From a virus (lineage: Duplodnaviria > Heunggongvirae > Uroviricota > Caudoviricetes): a DNA stretch of 30,219 nt. The translations under genes and the position numbers were made by a program. Location of the stretch: positions 1 to 30,219 of IMG/VR virus record IMGVR_UViG_2563366798_000006. The stretch is one strand, 5' to 3'. Below, piece by piece: positions 15,641 to 24,807 of the stretch (positions within the stretch are counted from its first letter, which is position 1; each line of letters begins with the position of its first letter). The notes below the pieces were generated by a model. The model was given only the letters and a program-made list of their open reading frames with translations, was not told the DNA's origin and did no database searches.

Positions 15641-16085
15641 GTTTAAGCGTTTTGAAGACCGGCTGACCGGACTGATTGAGTCGCTGTCACCGTCAGGGCG
15701 TCGGCGACTGAGTGCCGAACTGGCGAAACGTCTGCGGCAGAGTCAGCAGCATCGTGTGATGGCACAGAAAGCCCCGGACGGCACCCCCTACGCGCCACGC
15801 CAGCAGCAGAGCGCCAGAAAAAAGACCGGTCGCGTTAAGCGAAAAATGTTTGCGAAACTTATCACCAGTCGTTTTTTGCATATCCGCGCCAGCCCTGAAC
15901 AGGCATCAATGGAGTTTTACGGCGGGAAGTCACCGAAAATAGCCAGTGTGCATCAGTTCGGTCTGTCAGAAGAAAACCGGAAAGACGGTAAGAAAATTGA
16001 TTATCCGGCGCGTCCTCTGCTCGGCTTTACCGGTGAGGATGTGCAGATGATTGAAGAGATTATCCTGACTCACCTCGATCGTTAG
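15633..16085 (+). CDS. S: Tail completion protein S
   Basis: 150 aa, overlaps the R end, P2 gpS position. Confidence 0.8.
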   Translation: MNEFKRFEDRLTGLIESLSPSGRRRLSAELAKRLRQSQQHRVMAQKAPDGTPYAPRQQQSARKKTGRVKRKMFAKLITSRFLHIRASPEQASMEFYGGKSPKIASVHQFGLSEENRKDGKKIDYPARPLLGFTGEDVQMIEEIILTHLDR

Positions 16086-16151
16086 TTGTGCCATTCCCGA
16101 CACCTCATCGTCACATTGCCGCCGGTATGACCCGGCGGCATCCTTCCCGTT

Positions 16152-16793
16152 ATGAACACTCTCGCAAATATTCAGGAACTCGCGCGCGCACTGCGCAACA
16201 TGATCCGCACCGGCCTTGTCGTCGAAACCGACCTTAACGCCGGTCGCTGCCGTGTGCAGACCGGCGGCATGTGCACCGACTGGCTTCAGTGGCTGACCCA
16301 TCGCGCCGGACGTTCGCGCACATGGTGGGCGCCTTCCGTGGGGGAACAGGTTCTGATTCTGGCCGTGGGCGGTGAACTCGACACGGCGTTCGTTCTGCCG
16401 GGGATTTATTCCGGTGATAACCCCGCGCCGTCTGCGTCGGCGGATGCCCTGCATATCCGTTTCCCTGACGGGGCGGTGATTGAGTATGAACCCGAAACCA
16501 GTGCACTCACGGTAAGCGGAATTAAAACGGCCAGCGTGACGGCTTCTGATTCTGTTACCGCCACGGTGCCGGCGGTCATGGTGAAAGCATCAACCCGCGT
16601 CACCCTGGACACACCAGAGGTGGTCTGCACTAACAAACTGACTACCGGCACGCTGGAAGTGCAGAAGGGCGGGAAGATGCACGGCAACATCGAGCATACC
16701 GACGGGAAATTCACGTCTAACGGCGTTCAGGTGGATGACCACGGTCACGGTGGTGTTAAGTCAGGTGACAACTGGACGCAGGGGACAAAATGA
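16152..16793 (+). CDS. V: Baseplate spike protein V
   Basis: 213 aa, first gene of the baseplate block V-W-J-I. Confidence 0.85.
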   Translation: MNTLANIQELARALRNMIRTGLVVETDLNAGRCRVQTGGMCTDWLQWLTHRAGRSRTWWAPSVGEQVLILAVGGELDTAFVLPGIYSGDNPAPSASADALHIRFPDGAVIEYEPETSALTVSGIKTASVTASDSVTATVPAVMVKASTRVTLDTPEVVCTNKLTTGTLEVQKGGKMHGNIEHTDGKFTSNGVQVDDHGHGGVKSGDNWTQGTK

Positions 16794-17137
16794 CAGCGCG
16801 TTATCTCGGAATGAATCGCAGTGATGGCCTGACTGTCACTGACCTTGAGCATATCAGCCAGAGTATCGGCGATATCCTGCGCACACCGGTCGGCTCGCGG
16901 GTGATGCGTCGTGATTACGGCTCGTTGCTGGCGTCAATGATTGACCAGCCGCAGACCCCGGCGCTTGAGTTGCAGATTAAGGTCGCCTGTTACATGGCAG
17001 TGCTGAAATGGGAACCCCGCGTCACCCTGGCATCCGTCACCACGGCGCGCAGCTTTGACGGTCGAATGACAGTTACGTTAACCGGCCAGCATAACGACAC
17101 CGGCCAGCCACTTTCGTTAACCATCCCTGTGAGTTGA
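16790..17137 (+). CDS. W: Baseplate wedge protein W (gp25-like)
   Basis: 115 aa, start overlaps the V stop, P2 gpW size. Confidence 0.85.
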   Translation: MTARYLGMNRSDGLTVTDLEHISQSIGDILRTPVGSRVMRRDYGSLLASMIDQPQTPALELQIKVACYMAVLKWEPRVTLASVTTARSFDGRMTVTLTGQHNDTGQPLSLTIPVS

Positions 17138-17141
17138 AACC

Positions 17142-18050
17142 ATGCCGATTATCGACCTGAACCAGCTACCCGCACCGGATGTGGTTGAGGAGCTGGACTT
17201 TGAAACCATTCTTGCCGAACGCAAGGCGACACTGATTTCCCTTTACCCGGAAGACCAGCAGGAGGCGGTCGCCCGTACCCTGACGCTGGAATCCGAGCCT
17301 CTCGTCAAACTGCTGGAGGAAAATGCTTATCGTGAGCTTATCTGGCGTCAGCGTGTGAATGAGGCCGCACGGGCAGTAATGCTGGCCTGTGCCGCCGGTA
17401 ATGACCTTGATGTGATTGGTGCCAATTACAACACCACGCGCCTGATTATCACCCCGGCAGATGATTCGACCATCCCGCCGACACCGGCAGTGATGGAGTC
17501 TGACACCGATTATCGTCTGCGTATTCAGCAGGCGTTTGAGGGCTTAAGCGTCGCCGGGTCGGTGGGAGCATATCAGTATCATGGTCGCAGTGCCGACGGG
17601 CGTGTCGCGGATATCTCTGTCACCAGTCCGTCTCCGGCCTGCGTCACCATCTCTGTGCTGTCACGTGAAAATAACGGCGTCGCATCCGAAGACCTGCTGG
17701 CTGTGGTACGTAACGCCCTGAATGGCGAGGATGTCAGGCCGGTGGCCGACCGCGTGACCGTGCAGTCTGCCGCCATCGTTGAATACCAGATAAACGCCAC
17801 GCTTTACCTTTACCCTGGTCCCGAAAGCGAACCCATCCGCGCTGCCGCCGTGAAAAAACTGGAAGCGTATATCACGGCACAGCACCGGCTGGGGCGCGAC
17901 ATCCGTCTGTCTGCCATTTATGCCGCTTTGCATGTGGAAGGCGTGCAGCGTGTCGAACTGGCTGCACCACTGGCCGACATCGTGCTCAACAGTACGCAGG
18001 CGTCTTTCTGTACAGAATACCGCGTCGTGACCGGAGGCTCGGATGAGTGA
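17142..18050 (+). CDS. J: Baseplate protein J
   Basis: 302 aa, P2 gpJ size and position. Confidence 0.85.
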   Translation: MPIIDLNQLPAPDVVEELDFETILAERKATLISLYPEDQQEAVARTLTLESEPLVKLLEENAYRELIWRQRVNEAARAVMLACAAGNDLDVIGANYNTTRLIITPADDSTIPPTPAVMESDTDYRLRIQQAFEGLSVAGSVGAYQYHGRSADGRVADISVTSPSPACVTISVLSRENNGVASEDLLAVVRNALNGEDVRPVADRVTVQSAAIVEYQINATLYLYPGPESEPIRAAAVKKLEAYITAQHRLGRDIRLSAIYAALHVEGVQRVELAAPLADIVLNSTQASFCTEYRVVTGGSDE

Positions 18051-18573
18051 TTCGCGACTGCTGCCGACCGGTTCATCACCGCTTGAGGTTGCTGCTGCAA
18101 AAGCCTGTGCGGAAATTGAAAAAACGCCGGTCAGTATTCGTGAGCTGTGGAACCCGGACACCTGCCCGGCAAATCTGCTGCCGTGGCTGGCGTGGGCGTT
18201 TTCGGTCGACAGGTGGGATGAAAAGTGGCCGGAAGCGACAAAACGCGCCGTTATCCGCGATGCCTATTTCATCCACTGTCATAAAGGCACTATCGGCGCA
18301 ATCCGGCGTGTGGTGGAGCCGCTCGGCTATCTCATTAACGTAAAGGAATGGTGGGAGACAAACGACCCGCCCGGAACCTTCCGCCTTGATATCGGCGTAC
18401 TGGAAAGCGGCATCACGGAGGAGATGTATCTGGAAATGGAACGGCTGATTGCCGATGCCAAACCCGCAAGTCGCCACCTTATCGGTCTGAACATTATCCA
18501 GGACATTCCCGGCTGTCTGTATACAGGCGGTGTGGTCTGTGATGGTGATGTTATTACTGTTTATCCCGGATAA
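18043..18573 (+). CDS. I: Baseplate protein I
   Basis: 176 aa, overlaps the J end, P2 gpI size and position. Confidence 0.85.
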   Translation: MSDSRLLPTGSSPLEVAAAKACAEIEKTPVSIRELWNPDTCPANLLPWLAWAFSVDRWDEKWPEATKRAVIRDAYFIHCHKGTIGAIRRVVEPLGYLINVKEWWETNDPPGTFRLDIGVLESGITEEMYLEMERLIADAKPASRHLIGLNIIQDIPGCLYTGGVVCDGDVITVYPG

Positions 18574-18583
18574 GTGAGAAACA

Positions 18584-21196
18584 ATGAGCACGAAATTTAA
18601 AACCGTTATCACTACTGCCGGAGCCGCGAAGCTGGCAGCCGCCACTGTTCCCGGCGGGAAAAAAGTAAACCTGTCTGCAATGGCTGTGGGTGACGGTAAT
18701 GGCCAATTGCCGGTGCCGGATGCCGGTCAGACGAAACTGGTGCATGAAGTCTGGCGTCATGCCCTGAATAAAGTCAGTGTGGATAACAAGAATAAAAACT
18801 ATATCGTGGCTGAACTGGTTGTTCCGCCAGAAGTGGGCGGCTTCTGGATGCGTGAGCTTGGTCTGTATGACGATGCCGGAACACTGATTGCGGTATCCAA
18901 CATGGCAGAAAGCTATAAGCCAGAACTGGCTGAAGGCTCCGGACGTGCGCAGACCTGCCGCATGGTTATTATTCTCAGCAACGTGGCGTCCGTTGAGCTG
19001 AGTATTGATGCCAGCACAGTGATGGCGACGCAGGATTACGTCGATGACAAAATCGCAGAGCATGAGCAGTCCCGCCGCCATCCTGACGCCACGCTGACAG
19101 AAAAAGGTTTTACTCAGTTAAGCAGTGCAACAAACAGCACCAGTGAGTCATTGGCGGCAACGCCAAAAGCGGTCAAGGCAGCAAATGACAACGCAAATTC
19201 ACGTCTGGCGAAAAATCAGAATGGTGCAGATATCCAGGATAAATCAGCTTTTCTGGACAATGTTGGCGTTACCAGCCTGACGTTTATGAAAAACAACGGC
19301 GAAATGCCGGTTGATGCTGATCTGAATACATTTGGTCCTGTTAAGGCTTATTCAGGTATCTGGTCTAAAGCAACGTCCACCAACGCAACACTGGAGAAAA
19401 ATTTCCCGGAAGATAATGCTGTCGGTGTGCTTGAGGTTTTTGCTGGCGGCAATTTTGCAGGCACGCAACGCTATACCACACGTGACGGAAATTTGTATAT
19501 CCGCAAACTCATTGGAACATGGAATGGTAATGATGGACCATGGGGAGCATGGCGCCATGTTCAGGCTGTAACGCGTGCTCTAAGTACGACCATTGACCTT
19601 AACTCTCTCGGTGGCGCAGAACATTTAGGTTTATGGAGAAACAGCAGTTCAGCAATAGCTTCTTTTGAACGACATTACCCTGAGCAGGGAGGAGACGCGC
19701 AGGGCATTCTGGAAATTTTCGAAGGTGGGCTATATGGACGCACGCAGCGTTATACAACCCGTAACGGGACTATGTATATTCGCGGCCTGACAGCCAAATG
19801 GGATGCAGAAAATCCACAGTGGGAAGACTGGATCCAAATTGGTTATCAGACCAGTAGTACCTTCTATGAGGATGACCTGGATGATTTGATGTCTCCGGGT
19901 ATTTACAGTGTGACAGGCAAAGCGACCCACACCCCAATCCAGGGGCAGTCTGGTTTTCTGGAAGTCATCAGGCGCAAGGATGGTGTCTATGTTTTGCAAC
20001 GTTACACGACCACAGGAACCAGCGCAGCTACAAAAGACCGTTTATATGAGCGAGTTTTTCTTGGTGGCTCATTTAACGCGTGGGGGGAGTGGCGACAGAT
20101 TTATAACTCAAACTCTTTGCCGTTAGAGTTGGGTATCGGTGGCGCAGTGGCAAAACTCACCAGCCTGGACTGGCAGACATACGATTTTGTGCCGGGCAGT
20201 CTGATAACCGTTCGGCTTGATAATATGACCAACATTCCCGACGGTATGGACTGGGGCGTCATTGATGGCAACCTGATAAACATCGCAGTTGGTCCGAGTG
20301 ATGATTCCGGTACGGGGCGCTCAATGCATGTATGGCGCAGCACTGTAAGTAAAGCGAACTACCGCTTTTTTATGGTGCGTATTTCAGGAAATCCGGGAAG
20401 CCGCACGATCACGACAAGACGTGTGCCAATTATCGACGAAGCTCAGACATGGGGCGCGAAACAGACATTCAGTGCTGGCCTTTCTGGCGAACTGTCCGGC
20501 AATGCGGCTACAGCTACAAAGCTGAAAACGCCAAGGACAATTAACGGCGTAAAATTTGACGGCTCGGCAAATATTGAAGCGTTTCCGCCAGGTGTTCCGC
20601 TGCCGTGGCCATCAGATACACCACCTGCAGGCTATGCGATCATGCAGGGGCAGACGTTTGATAAGGCTGCATATCCGAAACTGGCTATTGCCTATCCTTC
20701 TGGTGTTATTCCTGATATGCGCGGCTGGACAATCAAGGGCAAACCCGCCAGTGGGCGTGCCGTATTGTCACAGGAACAGGACGGGATTAAATCGCATACT
20801 CACAGCGCCAGTGCGTCAAATACGGACTTAGGAACGAAAACGACCAGTTCATTTGATTACGGGACAAAAACAGTCAGTACGTTTAACCACGGCACAAAAT
20901 CAACCAATACTTCTGGCAATCATACACATACCGTCGGTTTTGCTGTGAGCGTGCAATCAGGCGGTGCAGATTATGGTGTTCCGCGAAGTGATAAAGGTGC
21001 TACGACTACAAGTTCATCAGGCAATCATGCACATACAGTCGACATTGGAGCACATAACCATACTGTTGGTATTGGTGCACATTCACACACTGTTGCTATT
21101 GGCTCACACGGGCATTCCATTACCGTAAATGCTACTGGTAATACCGAAAACACCGTCAAAAACATCGCATTTAACTATATTGTGAGGCTTGCATAA
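18584..21196 (+). CDS. H: Tail fiber protein H (mosaic: P2-type N-terminus, internal triple repeat, collar-like domain, His-x-His C-terminus)
   Basis: The N-terminal ~200 aa match P2 gpH as recalled. 870 aa (P2 H is shorter, from memory). C-terminal part has a PWPSD...YPKL...DMRGW tail-collar-like motif and GNHTHTV / GNHAHTV / GAHNHTV / GAHSHTV / GSHGHSI repeats. Confidence 0.85.
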
Positions 21197-21774
21197 TGGC
21201 TTTCAGAATGAGTGCAGAAGCACAAACTATCCGCGTTTTCAATTTACTTGATGGAACCAATGAGTTTATTGGCGAAAGTGATGCATATATTCCGCCGTAT
21301 ACTGGCCTGCCTGCAAACAGTACAGATATTGCACCACCTGATATTCCTGCTGGTTATGCAGCCGTTTTCAATGCAGATGAAATGAAATGGGAGTTGATGG
21401 AAGATCATCGCGGAAAGACTGTCTACGAAACGAAAATGGGAGCAGCCATTTATATTTCTGAACTTGGCGCATTACCTCCAGACGTGACAGCCATTTCCCC
21501 GGAGGGGGATTATCAGAAATGGAACGGAAATGCGTGGGTGAATGATGAGAATGCAGAGCGTGATGCACTTGTCAGAGCGGCTGAGTCTCAGAAGAAAGAG
21601 CAGATTGCATATGCAGGTGAAATCATTGCCATGCTGCAGGATGCTGTCGATTTAGATATGGCTACCGAGGAAGAAAAGTTAAGCCTGACACACTGGAAAA
21701 AATACCGTGTGCTGCTTAATCGCGTTCAGCCGGAAAATGCTCCGGATATAGAATGGCCTGAAATGCCGCAATAA
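21196..21774 (+). CDS. G: Tail fiber assembly chaperone G
   Basis: 192 aa immediately after H; start overlaps the H stop (TAATG). Confidence 0.75.
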
Positions 21775-22072
21775 ATTGTATAAGCTCTGATGTGAGTTTA
21801 TACATCTATGGCACAGAGTAAAACCTAATCTGACTGTCCGCTCTGTGCTAGGAGCGGACGTGATGCATATCTGTCACCAAATTTAATGTGCCACTACAAA
21901 CAGAGTATATAGTTGAATATTATAGTGCACCCCGGCCTCATGAATATAACGGTGGATTACCGCCGAACGAGTCGGAAAATAGATACTGGAAAAACTCTAA
22001 AATCGAGGCCAGTTTTTGTTGTTCTCTACAATAATAATCGGATTTTCCCATGACAAGTTTAATAGTATTTAG

Positions 22073-23182
22073 GTGCCTGAAGTGAAGTTGAAGAAGCTAT
22101 TGATGAAAGTTGTGAAAGTGGTAAAGGAGCAGGTTCTAAGTACCGTTATTTCGGGAATAATAGGCATAGCGGCTACAGTAGGGCTTTTCCATTTCACTTC
22201 ACAGCCAATACGATCTGCTGATGTTCGCGAAAAATTAGTTGAAATGGCTCGGGAGTGCATCCAGCAGCAGCTTGCCACACATTTGGACTCAGTGGCGTTT
22301 GACTCAGTGGCTAGCGAGTCTCTCGATCTAAGCACCTCAAACTCCGTTGTAGTCTACGGAAGAGCTGTGAGCACAAATGGTGCCCTTAGCCGTTTCCTGA
22401 TGGTCTTCGAGCCCTCTGGACAGAGTTTGATAGATAAGGTGGTTGGCAGACCTGGATTCTACGATATTGGGTATTGGGCAATCATCCCAGACGCAGGGGA
22501 CGACGAGGTTGTGGCTTCTTCAGTAAACATTGAAGACCTCGACAAAGATGGTAACAAGGACATACTAGTCCGCTTAAAGTCAACTTACGCGGATGGTGTA
22601 TCCAAAGGGCTTCTTATACTTAAAAAGGATATCCATGATGTATGGCATTTGATGGGGCTTCCATCAATGACAGAGATCATGCATTCCATTGCTGCAGGTC
22701 AGCCTCCCCAGCCGGAAGGTCTTCACCTTCCACTTCCGGCAATACAATGGTTTAGTAATGACGAAAAACTCAAACCAAAGTCTGATATCAAACAATATCT
22801 TAATTGGGAAATTGACGAAGATAACTTGCAGGTCGCTGATTCCACTGGAAATCATTCTTTTTGGATGTTCAGAAACGGCACCAAGATAAAAATGTTCGAG
22901 AATGGACAAGCCGGCTACAAGCACTTTGGTGTACTGGTCAACATCAATGATGAAGAGGCGATACAGGGAAGGCATCATCTCATGGTCAGCTTTTTCAAGA
23001 TAGAGAATAATAGTTTGGTTCCTGATCCGAATTGGAACTGGGCCTATCCCATGTTCTCTATCGGATTAGAGGATAGCCAAGAAGTTGAATTGAGTGACAT
23101 GCAGGAAGCGGGCTTACAAGCTCATGTTTCTGGTAGCTCCGTTTTCGGCCTGACAGAGTTTGGGAAAATGGACTCAGATTAA
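22073..23182 (+). CDS. Cargo gene at the Z/fun hotspot position: N-terminally membrane-anchored 369-aa protein of unknown function
   Basis: AT-rich ORF between G and FI. Lys-rich N-terminus then one hydrophobic helix (VLSTVISGIIGIAATVGLFHF), predicted N-in/C-out, and a ~330-aa soluble domain with a DLDKDGNKD motif. The track start is GTG 22073; an in-frame ATG at 22103 is an alternative. Confidence 0.6.
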   Translation: MPEVKLKKLLMKVVKVVKEQVLSTVISGIIGIAATVGLFHFTSQPIRSADVREKLVEMARECIQQQLATHLDSVAFDSVASESLDLSTSNSVVVYGRAVSTNGALSRFLMVFEPSGQSLIDKVVGRPGFYDIGYWAIIPDAGDDEVVASSVNIEDLDKDGNKDILVRLKSTYADGVSKGLLILKKDIHDVWHLMGLPSMTEIMHSIAAGQPPQPEGLHLPLPAIQWFSNDEKLKPKSDIKQYLNWEIDEDNLQVADSTGNHSFWMFRNGTKIKMFENGQAGYKHFGVLVNINDEEAIQGRHHLMVSFFKIENNSLVPDPNWNWAYPMFSIGLEDSQEVELSDMQEAGLQAHVSGSSVFGLTEFGKMDSD

Positions 23183-23493
23183 TATTCGCTAACCTTACCA
23201 ACGAAGAGCAGGTCACAGGTATGGCCTAATTATGTTTTCAGAGGAGTCAGGGCTCAAGAATGCCCCCAGATAAGCCGTAAATCCTGTAGCGCAAAATCGT
23301 CTCAGATGACGCAGAGATATTAAAAACGCCTCAACCTGTTCATCAATTAATTGATAGGTTGAACTGTTAGTTAAACTTTCACCAGCAGAAAGGTATGAAC
23401 TTTTTCGACTCGCTCAAAGCTGGCTGTCAGAGCTGATAGCGTTTTGGCTACGTAAATTGTCAGTTGGAAACTGAGCGAGTACAAATCAAGACT

Positions 23494-23520
23494 GGCGGGC
23501 TGATTGCCCGCCTTTTCTTT
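23494..23520 (+). terminator. Intrinsic terminator downstream of the Z/fun-position cargo gene
   Basis: GGCGGGC-tgatt-GCCCGCC perfect 7-bp GC stem followed by TTTTCTTT. Confidence 0.5.
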
Positions 23521-23616
23521 ATCTGTTGTTTCATCCACTGACCAGCCAGGTCAAATAGCGTCTCATGCACTGCCCAACAGAAAATAGTTGCACCCATTAA
23601 CCACGGAGTTAAACGG

Positions 23617-24807
23617 ATGAGCGACTATCATCATGGCGTGCAGGTGCTGGAGATTAACGACGGCACCCGCGTCATTTCCACCGTATCCACCGCCATTGTC
23701 GGCATGGTCTGCACGGCCAGCGATGCGGATGCGGAAACCTTCCCCCTCAATAAACCGGTGCTGATTACCAATGTGCAGAGTGCGATTGCAAAGGCCGGTA
23801 AAAAAGGCACGCTGGCGGCGTCGTTGCAGGCCATCGCTGACCAGTCAAAACCGGTCACCGTTGTTGTGCGCGTGGAAGACGGCACCGGCGACGACGAAGA
23901 AACGAAACTTGCGCAGACCGTTTCCAATATCATCGGCACCACTGACGAAAACGGTCAGTACACCGGACTGAAAGCCCTGATGGGGGCTGAGTCGGTTACC
24001 GGCGTTAAACCGCGCATTCTTGGTGTGCCGGGGCTGGACACCAAAGAGGTTGCCGTCGCACTGGCATCGGTATGCCAGGAACTGAATGCATTCGGGTATA
24101 TCAGCGCATGGGGCTGTAAAACCATTTCCGAGGTGAAAGCCTACCGCCAGAATTTCAGCCAGCGTGAGCTGATGGTCATCTGGCCGGATTTCCTCGCATG
24201 GGATACGGTTACCAGTACCACCGCCACCGCGTATGCCACCGCCCGTGCGCTGGGGCTGCGCGCTAAAATCGACCAGGAGCAGGGCTGGCATAAAACGCTG
24301 TCCAACGTCGGGGTAAACGGTGTTACCGGCATCAGCGCATCTGTATTCTGGGATTTGCAGAAGTCTGGCACTGATGCTGACCTGCTGAACGAGGCAGGCG
24401 TCACAACGCTGGTTCGCCGCGACGGTTTCCGTTTCTGGGGTAACCGTACCTGCTCCGATGACCCACTGTTCCTCTTTGAAAGCTACACACGCACCGCGCA
24501 GGTACTGGCTGACACGATGGCTGAGGCGCACATGTGGGCTATTGATAAGCCCATCACCGCAACACTGATTCGCGACATCATTGATGGCATCAATGCCAAA
24601 TTCCGCGAACTGAAAAGCAACGGTTATATCGTGGATGGCACATGCTGGTTCAGTGAAGAATCCAACGATGCGGAAACCCTCAAGGCCGGAAAACTGTATA
24701 TCGACTACGACTATACCCCGGTGCCTCCCCTCGAAAACCTGACCCTGCGCCAGCGTATTACTTCTAGATACCTGGCAAGTCTGGTCACCTCGGTTAACAG
24801 CAATTAA
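23617..24807 (+). CDS. FI: Tail sheath protein FI
   Basis: 396 aa, GGAG SD, P2 gpFI size and position. Confidence 0.9.
   Translation: MSDYHHGVQVLEINDGTRVISTVSTAIVGMVCTASDADAETFPLNKPVLITNVQSAIAKAGKKGTLAASLQAIADQSKPVTVVVRVEDGTGDDEETKLAQTVSNIIGTTDENGQYTGLKALMGAESVTGVKPRILGVPGLDTKEVAVALASVCQELNAFGYISAWGCKTISEVKAYRQNFSQRELMVIWPDFLAWDTVTSTTATAYATARALGLRAKIDQEQGWHKTLSNVGVNGVTGISASVFWDLQKSGTDADLLNEAGVTTLVRRDGFRFWGNRTCSDDPLFLFESYTRTAQVLADTMAEAHMWAIDKPITATLIRDIIDGINAKFRELKSNGYIVDGTCWFSEESNDAETLKAGKLYIDYDYTPVPPLENLTLRQRITSRYLASLVTSVNSN

Follow-up and report, generated by a model that had tools for sequence, protein, structure and literature searches.

Gene H of the P2-like (Peduovirus) prophage analyzed here raises the question of which phages the parts of its tail fibre came from, and which of these parts would meet the host. 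Within the window, i.e., the whole stretch of 30,219 nucleotides that we analyzed, we find that H is very probably a mosaic that recombination assembled from three or more modules, among them a P2 anchor, T6/pyocin-like knobs and a T4/lambda-type tip. The 870-aa open reading frame that the preliminary description placed at 18584-21196 on the + strand is real, exactly as stated there. Its product is an exact match to WP_001517505.1, annotated as a "phage tail protein" of Escherichia sp. KTE11, and matches PHROG tail fibre families with E values down to 1e-252; a scan against NCBIfam, using both H and the knob region and accepting E values as high as 1, yielded no family. The gene lies between gene I (baseplate) on one side and gene G (fibre assembly) on the other, and upstream of the sheath gene FI, with window positions 23409-23700, around the start of the FI-like ORF, matching P2 DNA that spans the pF promoter and the FI start (82% identity). 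The features of this locus are as follows.

18043-18573: gene I (Tail_P2_I, Pfam)
18584..21196, + strand: gene H, tail fibre protein, 870 aa (ORF; stop codon TAA at 21194-21196)
18584..19204, + strand: H aa 1-207, P2 gpH-type N-terminal module, in which a part for baseplate attachment precedes a Phage_fiber_2 repeat (Pfam, BLASTP)
19289..19570, + strand: H aa 236-329, knob domain R1
19571..19849, + strand: H aa 330-422, knob domain R2 (similarity to R1)
19850..20113, + strand: H aa 423-510, knob domain R3, which is divergent and varies more among homologues than the other knobs (HMMs of R1 and R2)
20114..20455, + strand: H aa 511-624, conserved shaft domain, here called R4
20456..20590, + strand: H aa 625-669, conserved linker with a 27-residue motif, holding a recombination junction
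20591..20734, + strand: H aa 670-717, collar domain of the T4 gp37 D10 / gp12 type (Pfam)
20735..20929, + strand: H aa 718-782, needle-stem strand that runs outwards, bearing a GTKxxSxF repeat as well as the HxH motifs of aa 738 and 780 (from alignment to lambda Stf, P24A7b and T4 gp37)
20930..21025, + strand: H aa 783-814, hypervariable distal tip, predicted receptor-contact cassette
21026..21193, + strand: H aa 815-870, returning needle strand on which four HxH motifs recur every 9 residues (815, 824, 833, 842), ending in an 11-residue C-terminal sequence
21196..21774, + strand: gene G, 192 aa, chaperone for tail fibre assembly, of the same type as lambda Tfa and T4 gp38 (Pfam)
23617-24807: FI-like ORF

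The region downstream of these genes carries cargo unlike that of other P2-like phages, as would be expected if H belonged to a decayed prophage from which a functional fibre is no longer made, and a PADLOC scan of a 369-aa ORF downstream returned no match. We consider such decay very unlikely, as H contains no frameshifts or internal stops, all of its structural His residues are retained, and the ORFs of H, G and their neighbours of the I, J, W, V, FI and FII types are all intact and keep the order found in functional phages; window positions 16001-20529 are 96% identical to Escherichia phage 899.

A P2-type anchor that ends at residue 207

Examination of the N-terminus demonstrated matches to Pfam Phage_tail_fib (PF12571) over aa 1-151 (E 2.4e-57) and to Phage_fiber_2 over aa 170-211 (E 5e-21). 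Using BLASTP against the canonical P2 gpH (NC_001895, 669 aa), aa 1-207 align at 83% identity, in agreement with the proposal that the first ~200 residues are P2 gpH-like, and beyond aa 207 this comparison returned no alignment, so that the C-terminal region is not colinear with that of canonical P2 gpH. At the DNA level, similarity to P2 stops at window position 19189, with none found in H beyond this point. The further claim that the rest of H differs from P2 is correct for the canonical protein, but does not extend to all P2-like phages, since the H proteins of Escherichia phage 899 and Yersinia phage GMG73 are 95% identical to ours over aa 1-671. We propose that aa 1-207 would serve as a P2-type anchor, attaching the fibre to the baseplate beside gpI and gpJ. 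A junction after 207 N-terminal residues has likewise been reported for the GpH protein of phage L-413C (PMC7460101).

Three knob domains and a conserved shaft domain

The preliminary description proposed a tandem triple repeat of a ~50-aa unit starting at 19417. Our analysis of this region confirmed three copies, R1, R2 and R3, with QRYTT motifs at aa 295, 388 and 472, but the unit is 88-94 aa in length, and the block extends over window positions 19289-20113, so that a start at 19417 omits roughly the first 40 residues of copy one. Local alignments compared with 500 shuffles gave significant internal similarity, with z=27.7 for R1/R2, z=6.6 for R1/R3 and z=3.4 for R2/R3. HMMs built from the R1 or R2 units of other proteins match R3 of H in register (i-E about 7e-4) and match nothing in H outside the repeat copies, and single-chain structure prediction gave one five-strand pattern, shared by R1, R2 and R3 at high pLDDT. 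By pairwise alignment, the similarity of R3 to R2 is marginal.

These units have the organization of pyocin knobs, i.e., tandem antiparallel sheets of five to six strands with outer loops. A profile of 18 knob units matches the pyocin fibre structures 6cl5, 6cl6 and 6ct8 at about the position of Knob2, with E values of 1.8e-3 to 4.5e-3 that are weak but specific, and also matches Pa193 gp47 (9b45; E 2.3e-4); NCBI labels relatives of H as "pyocin knob domain-containing protein". These knobs would assemble as a trimeric beta-prism around the fibre axis.

Immediately downstream of R3, the R4 domain is conserved, with 90% mean pairwise identity among homologues versus 72% (minimum 32%) for R3, the least conserved domain of the shaft. 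At the amino acid level, R3 is 40% identical to P24A7b and 57% identical to the P2SIDE7 record. R4 falls inside the block shared with T6 gp37, its AF2 pLDDT is low (about 41-67), and a search of PDB sequences with an R4 profile returned only noise. We rejected R4 as a fourth knob, since a comparison of the knob and R4 profiles by hhalign yielded a probability of 0.1%. Together, aa 226-634 would form a shaft resembling the proximal part of T6 gp37, with three tandem R-pyocin-type knobs followed by a conserved fourth domain. The linker motif that follows R4 is also found at T6 gp37 aa 63-106, ahead of the T6 knob block.

A collar and needle tip of the T4 gp37 type

The collar-like domain that had been proposed for the distal part of H is recognized by Pfam Collar (PF07484; E 2.3e-10) at aa 670-717, and corresponds in alignment to the D10 collar as defined in T4 gp37 (PMC6957217). 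The homology extends well beyond the collar, with H aa 634-870 matching the T4 gp37 tip structure 2XGF (E 6e-77; 68% identity in a MAFFT alignment) and aligning with T4 gp37 aa 785-1026; a short tail fibre (9cuy) is a further match to the collar region (E 1e-4). The run of HxH motifs was also as described, except that there are six motifs rather than five, located at aa 738, 780, 815, 824, 833 and 842 (window 20795-21115); given the amount of His in H, chance alone would yield about 0.55. Six motifs are the norm in this family (108 of 118 sequences), each of the 12 His residues is kept in 116-117 of 117 homologues, and the motifs align with the iron-binding HxH motifs of T4 in 2XGF, which bears out their assignment to the T4 needle type.

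These data also decide whether the triple repeat and the HxH run could be compositional or chance features lacking structural meaning. The weak R2/R3 score would suit such a reading, but it is contradicted by the R1/R2 score, by cross-family HMMs whose only matches in H are the three copies, all in register, by the common strand pattern, and by invariant His residues that align with the iron ligands of 2XGF. We regard it as refuted.

The needle of T4 gp37 is a homotrimer in which His residues of three chains coordinate Fe2+ octahedrally (PMC6957217). Based on the 68% identity to this solved trimer, we predict that the tip of H also forms a trimer and coordinates metal ions. The chain of the needle would run outwards to a 32-residue hypervariable tip and then return, stapled by the six HxH motifs, at which the trimer is expected to bind six metal ions, Fe2+ in T4, along its axis.

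The end of the needle contrasts with its stem. In a four-way alignment, collar and stem are conserved and the tip cannot be aligned, and aa 783-814 occur as 53 distinct variants among 118 aligned sequences, with flanks that are 80-99% identical. This segment aligns with T4 gp37 residues 932-965, which include the receptor-contact residues I933, N937, G938, K945, I951 and Y953 (PMC6957217).

Probable recombinational origin of the modules

The preliminary description attributed the distal part of H to recombination. Consistent with this, DNA similarity breaks sharply at two positions within H: that to P2 is lost at 19189, and that to phage 899 and to the P2SIDE7 record stops at 20529, in the linker, with lambda similarity beginning at 20579. 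The lambda similarity covers 20579-20909 and 21026-21760 and skips the tip. In addition, GC content steps at the junctions from 57-59% to 46-49%, then to 52% and then to 42-45%, the best relatives differ from segment to segment, and different P2-like phages have different segments of H in common with it, at 95-100% identity. We rejected T4 gp37 as the source of the knobs, since its BLASTP match to H is confined to the tip and it is T6 gp37 that contains the knobs.

The chaperone gene adds to this picture. G matches Pfam Caudo_TAP (PF02413; E 2.8e-39), and H ends and G begins in overlapping codons (TAATG), as is also the case for lambda stf/tfa. The G protein is 97% identical to G of P24A7b and 65% identical to lambda Tfa over its full length, it is 29% identical to T4 gp38 (E 6e-20), and it aligns with P2 G over aa 95-192 only (40%). 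This pattern fits the modular model of Tfa proteins, in which the N-domain binds the fibre and is variable, and the C-domain is conserved (PMC9608196). From these homologies, G has evidently travelled together with the tip: its variable N-terminal half would have arrived with the tip, which it would fold and trimerize, and its conserved C-terminal half would represent the common Tfa trimerization domain.

An alternative is that H is a P2 gpH that diverged vertically, with no exchange of modules, through the rapid evolution of receptor-binding proteins. Tail fibre genes do evolve fast, and both the first 207 residues and the genomic position of H are P2-like. However, gradual divergence does not account for a fall from 83% identity to no alignment at aa 207, for matches to gp37 of two unrelated phages (56% identity of the middle part to that of T6, and 57-68% of the distal part to that of T4) and to lambda Stf (72%), for P2-like phages that share different segments at 95-100%, or for the GC steps. 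On these comparisons vertical divergence is effectively refuted. The DNA breakpoints, the different best relatives of each segment, the GC steps and the transfer of the cognate chaperone with the tip thus argue for recombinational acquisition. Since the receptor-binding tip is unrelated to that of P2, it is reasonable to expect a host range different from that of P2, as was suggested earlier.

Proposed sites of host recognition

Mosaic P2 tail fibres have reportedly been described since 1992 (Haggard-Ljungquist, cited in PMC9594776). H changes no concept, as such fibres were already known and its architecture is common among Escherichia genome sequences; it illustrates, clearly but in an ordinary way, the exchange of host-recognition modules among phages. 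It is also a clean natural case of tail-fibre module shuffling among P2-like, lambda-like and T-even phages, and it offers candidate fusion points for engineering the host range of P2- or pyocin-based particles, namely residue 207, either boundary of R3, the linker around aa 649 with its NAATATKL sequence, and the cassette at the tip (aa 783-814).

In our proposed mechanism, which none of the results contradicts, H would be the trimeric side tail fibre of the phage, aa 634-870 would be the receptor-binding tip of the T4 gp37 / lambda Stf type, a collar followed by a needle, and host recognition would take place mainly at aa 783-814, through binding of LPS and/or an outer-membrane protein; knob R3 may contribute to specificity. 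A stronger form of this last suggestion is that H has two specificity sites, with R3 as a putative glycan (LPS / O-antigen) site and the needle tip as the other, each an independently exchangeable cassette; a comparable arrangement has been proposed for Knob2 and the foot domain in R-type pyocin fibres. The low identity of R3 relative to R4 is consistent with this, and the DNA similarity to P24A7b is lost over window positions 19854-20159, roughly R3 (19850-20113), and lost again at the tip. In R1 and R2 pyocins, Knob2 and the C-terminal domain are the most diverse regions, and knob-like domains of the K1F endosialidase bind saccharides (PMC6116203), which also favors two sites. Against this, variability of a knob could equally reflect neutral mosaicism or evasion of antibodies or defences, and is not unique to R3, given that R1 of P24A7b is also strongly different (45%). 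We therefore hold two separate sites to be possible but doubtful. More specifically, R3 (aa 423-510) and the tip (aa 783-814) might read two different receptors along one polypeptide, e.g., a glycan and an outer-membrane protein, with R4 (aa 511-624) between them perhaps a fold new to the PDB, a combination that we consider unlikely. Our preferred reading remains recognition mainly by the needle tip.

Comparison with known systems

Yersinia phage L-413C carries a P2-like GpH that is a four-part mosaic (PMC7460101), and its knob region is 63% identical to H over 100% of aa 225-660. Its C-terminus is not T4/lambda-like, with the C-terminal 137 aa being P2 gpH-like (PMC7460101). The R1/R2 pyocin fibres (PDB 6CL5, 6CL6, 6CU2) have two knobs versus three in H, sequence similarity to them is marginal, and they terminate in a lectin-like foot rather than in a collar and needle, their only iron site lying in the shaft (PMC6116203).

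The gp37 protein of T6, of the T2 type, matches the shaft, its aa 105-516 being 56% identical to H aa 226-634 and spanning R1, R2, R3 and R4, but its distal part is different, carries the gp38 adhesin and does not contain the HxH needle. The reverse holds for T4 gp37 (2XGF; D10 collar, D11 needle), which has no match to H outside the tip, but shares with it the collar, the GTK repeats, the aligned HxH motifs and an identical 11-residue C-terminal sequence, and has a gp38 homologous to G. The needle of H is not identical to that of T4, since T4 has seven HxH motifs (883, 915, 929, 966, 980, 989, 998) and H has six, and the tip residues of T4 that contact OmpC and LPS are not conserved in H. Stf (orf-314) and Tfa (orf-194) of lambda (Ur-lambda) resemble H and G, with 72% amino acid identity over collar and needle and 70-78% identity at the DNA level; the tip insert of Stf is much longer and contains extra HxH motifs, and its N-terminal part and virion context are different.

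The remaining relatives are P2-like phages. In phages 899 and GMG73 the three knobs are 96-100% identical to those of H, but their C-terminal modules lack HxH motifs and are unrelated to that of H, and G is a chaperone of another type, aligning over aa 95-191 only (40%). In Peduovirus P24A7b (NC_049390), whose H is 77% identical overall, R1 (45%), R3 (40%) and the tip cassette (31%) have been replaced, and only two QRYT motifs are present. Its collar and stem are nevertheless 96-100% identical to ours, its DNA is 89-92% identical over distal H plus G, and the order of parts is the same, running from a P2 N-terminus through a knob shaft to a collar and a six-HxH needle of the T4/lambda type, and on to the same chaperone. 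This same H architecture is present in P24A7b and in 85 complete E. coli genomes.

Mosaic organization of the tail fibre gene

The window contains a P2-like prophage block of tail and baseplate genes, within which the tail fibre gene, H, lies between a baseplate gene and the gene encoding its assembly chaperone, G:

18043-18573, Tail_P2_I baseplate gene (Pfam), upstream neighbour of H
18584-21196, + strand, H, intact open reading frame, 870 aa
21196-21774, G, Caudo_TAP tail fibre assembly gene (Pfam), downstream neighbour of H

The H protein is identical to WP_001517505.1, a "phage tail protein" of Escherichia sp. KTE11 that belongs to a cluster of 127 sequences at 90% identity, and at least 80% of H plus G is present in 85 of 5,426 complete E. 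coli genomes (megablast; best identity 94%). We also found a 174-aa database fragment (P0159), 97% identical to the H fibre tip, under the NCBI label "Streptococcus pneumoniae", most likely as a result of enterobacterial DNA contaminating those assemblies.

The preliminary description of H, i.e., a P2-type N-terminus with a swapped-in T4-type tip module, is supported by our analysis with small numerical corrections. The N-terminus contains the Pfam domains Phage_tail_fib (aa 1-151) and Phage_fiber_2 (aa 170-211), and canonical P2 gpH (669 aa) can be aligned to H over aa 1-207 only, at 83% identity, with DNA similarity to P2 ending at 19189; this confirmed both the proposed likeness to gpH and the proposed divergence of the remainder. 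Comparison with H of phage 899 and of Peduovirus P24A7b resolved this remainder into segments of differing ancestry.

Identity of H segments to H of phage 899 and of P24A7b (values below ~30% are forced global alignments of unrelated sequence)
N-terminus, aa 1-207: 899, 96%; P24A7b, 98%
Repeat unit R1, aa 236-329: 899, 96%; P24A7b, 45%
Repeat unit R2, aa 330-422: 899, 100%; P24A7b, 81%
Repeat unit R3, aa 423-510 (19850-20113): 899, 100%; P24A7b, 40%
Shaft segment R4, aa 511-624 (20114-20455): 899, 96%; P24A7b, 69%
Linker, aa 625-669: 899, 75%; P24A7b, 97%
Collar and outward stem, aa 670-782: 899, 15%; P24A7b, 96%
Tip, aa 783-814: 899, 28%; P24A7b, 31%
Returning stem, aa 815-870: 899, 19%; P24A7b, 100%

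At the DNA level, positions 16001-20529 are 96% identical to Escherichia phage 899, and the distal junction at ~20529 falls inside a conserved linker motif of 12 residues; the same motif occurs in T6 gp37 (aa 63-106), ahead of its knob block, in keeping with recombination at motifs common to both. Similarity to P24A7b is lost over 19854-20159, i.e., roughly at R3, which suggests that knobs can be exchanged individually. Across 16000-24000, steps in GC content follow the mosaic layout: the baseplate genes stand at ~57-59% and the knobs at 46-49%, R4, linker and collar rise to ~52%, the needle and the 5′ half of G drop to 42-45%, the cargo region ranges over 39-50%, and the sheath gene FI is back at 53-57%. 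In addition, relatives of the knob shaft bear differing C-terminal Pfam domains (PF07484, PF21446, PF12604 and PF21882).

Tandem knob domains in the fibre shaft

The three tandem repeats noted from the sequence alone are real, with a unit of 88-94 aa and not the ~50 aa first estimated. The QRYTT motif recurs at aa 295, 388 and 472, local pairwise scores exceeded those of shuffled sequences (R1/R2, z = 27.7; R1/R3, z = 6.6; R2/R3, z = 3.4), and HMMs built only from R1 or R2 units of other proteins matched R3 of H in register (i-E ~7e-4) and nothing else in the H protein. AlphaFold2, run on aa 225-660 with an alignment of 44 sequences, modelled each repeat at pLDDT ~80-89 with an identical five-strand pattern. 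The structures listed for these units are the AS12 gp42 tailspike (6eu4), the receptor-binding proteins of phi812 (9euf) and phi11 (5efv), phage K gp144 (5m9f) and T4 gp34 (5nxh); among them is the majority of the knob-like domains gathered by Buth et al. 2018 (PMC6116203). A profile of 18 knob units matched Pseudomonas phage Pa193 gp47 (E 2e-4) and, at approximately the Knob2 position, the fibres of R1 and R2 pyocins (E 2e-3 to 4.5e-3), and many close relatives are labelled "pyocin knob domain-containing protein" by NCBI. R1-R3 are thus a tandem array of three knob domains of the pyocin type. Taken together, residues 226-634 of H are 56% identical to T6 gp37 aa 105-516 and are absent from T4 gp37 and canonical P2 gpH. 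R4, also common to H and T6 gp37, shows the highest conservation within the shaft (90% mean pairwise identity); profile comparison gave no knob signal, no sequence relative was found in the PDB, and AlphaFold2 modelled it at low confidence.

A variable tip within a conserved collar and needle

The tail-collar-like motif noted previously corresponds to a Pfam Collar domain at aa 670-717 (E 2.3e-10). The T4 needle type proposed for the C-terminus was also borne out, with aa 651-870 matching the solved T4 gp37 receptor-binding tip (2XGF, E 6e-77) and a four-way alignment giving 68% identity to T4, 72% to lambda Stf (orf-314) and 86% to P24A7b. In T4, D10 forms the collar and D11 a needle in which HxH motifs bind seven iron ions, and residues around 933-953 of the distal tip make the contacts with OmpC and LPS (PMC6957217). 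Whereas T4 gp37 has seven HxH motifs (883, 915, 929, 966, 980, 989 and 998), H has six, one more than initially counted: two on the outward strand (aa 738 and 780) and four on the return strand (aa 815, 824, 833 and 842), the latter with a 9-residue period. Six is the family norm (108 of 118 sequences), and all twelve histidines are kept in 116-117 of 117 homologues, among which the isolated His769 is not conserved.

The counterpart of the T4 tip, aa 783-814, could not be brought into alignment across the four fibres (H, P24A7b, lambda and T4). Among 118 aligned C-terminal modules we observed 53 distinct tip sequences in a dozen or more unrelated classes, flanked by collar and stem regions that are 80-99% identical, the signature of a predicted receptor-specificity cassette within a conserved scaffold. 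The same tip type is also found on short fibres of ~280-330 aa.

Co-transfer of the chaperone gene

G (192 aa) shows 97% identity to G of P24A7b, full-length identity of 65% to lambda Tfa and 29% identity to T4 gp38 (E 6e-20), while P2 G resembles it over aa 95-192 only (40%). This pattern fits the modular Tfa model, as outlined in PMC9608196 citing North et al. 2019, which pairs a variable N-domain that binds the tip of the fibre with a conserved helical domain at the C-terminus that trimerises. The stop codon of H and the start codon of G share one base (TAATG, 21194-21198), as in lambda stf/tfa and P24A7b H/G but unlike canonical P2, which has a 3-nt gap; this is therefore consistent with the tip and chaperone having moved as one translationally coupled unit. 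DNA similarity to P24A7b spans 20160 to 21859, and that to lambda covers 20579-20909 and 21026-21760, leaving out the tip. From 21751 to 21859 (the last ~24 nt of G and ~85 nt downstream), the sequence again resembles every P2-like phage compared, canonical P2 among them, which marks the right-hand boundary of the exchanged tip and chaperone module.

Between G and FI, where canonical P2 holds the non-essential lysogenic-conversion gene fun(Z), lies a 369-aa open reading frame (22073-23182, + strand), whose true start is likely the ATG at 22103 (359 aa). It matches PHROG 15038, "unknown function" (E 5e-259), with no Pfam or PADLOC match, and has a hydrophobic stretch at its N-terminus and a GC content of 39-50%; it may be a cargo gene for lysogenic conversion or defence.

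Predicted host recognition and comparison with known fibres

The predicted homotrimeric fibre would dock on the P2-type baseplate via aa 1-207, and the knob shaft would extend its reach and may add secondary contacts to glycans; variability in pyocin fibres is highest in Knob2 and the C-terminal domain, the two putative binding regions (PMC6116203). The Tfa chaperone would nucleate the needle and set its register, six His6-metal sites would lock it, and the 32-residue tip would touch the receptor, by analogy with T4 most likely LPS and/or porin. A host range differing from that of P2 would be expected, because the tip is unrelated to the P2 gpH C-terminus.

Horizontal exchange of P2 tail fibre segments with unrelated phages was described by Haggard-Ljungquist et al., 1992 (as cited in PMC9594776), and GpH of L-413C has been described as a mosaic of four parts that shares the junction following residue 207 (PMC7460101). 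The full architecture of H is shared by the sequenced Peduovirus P24A7b and occurs in many Escherichia genomes; H, itself uncharacterised, belongs to a well-known kind of mosaic fibre.
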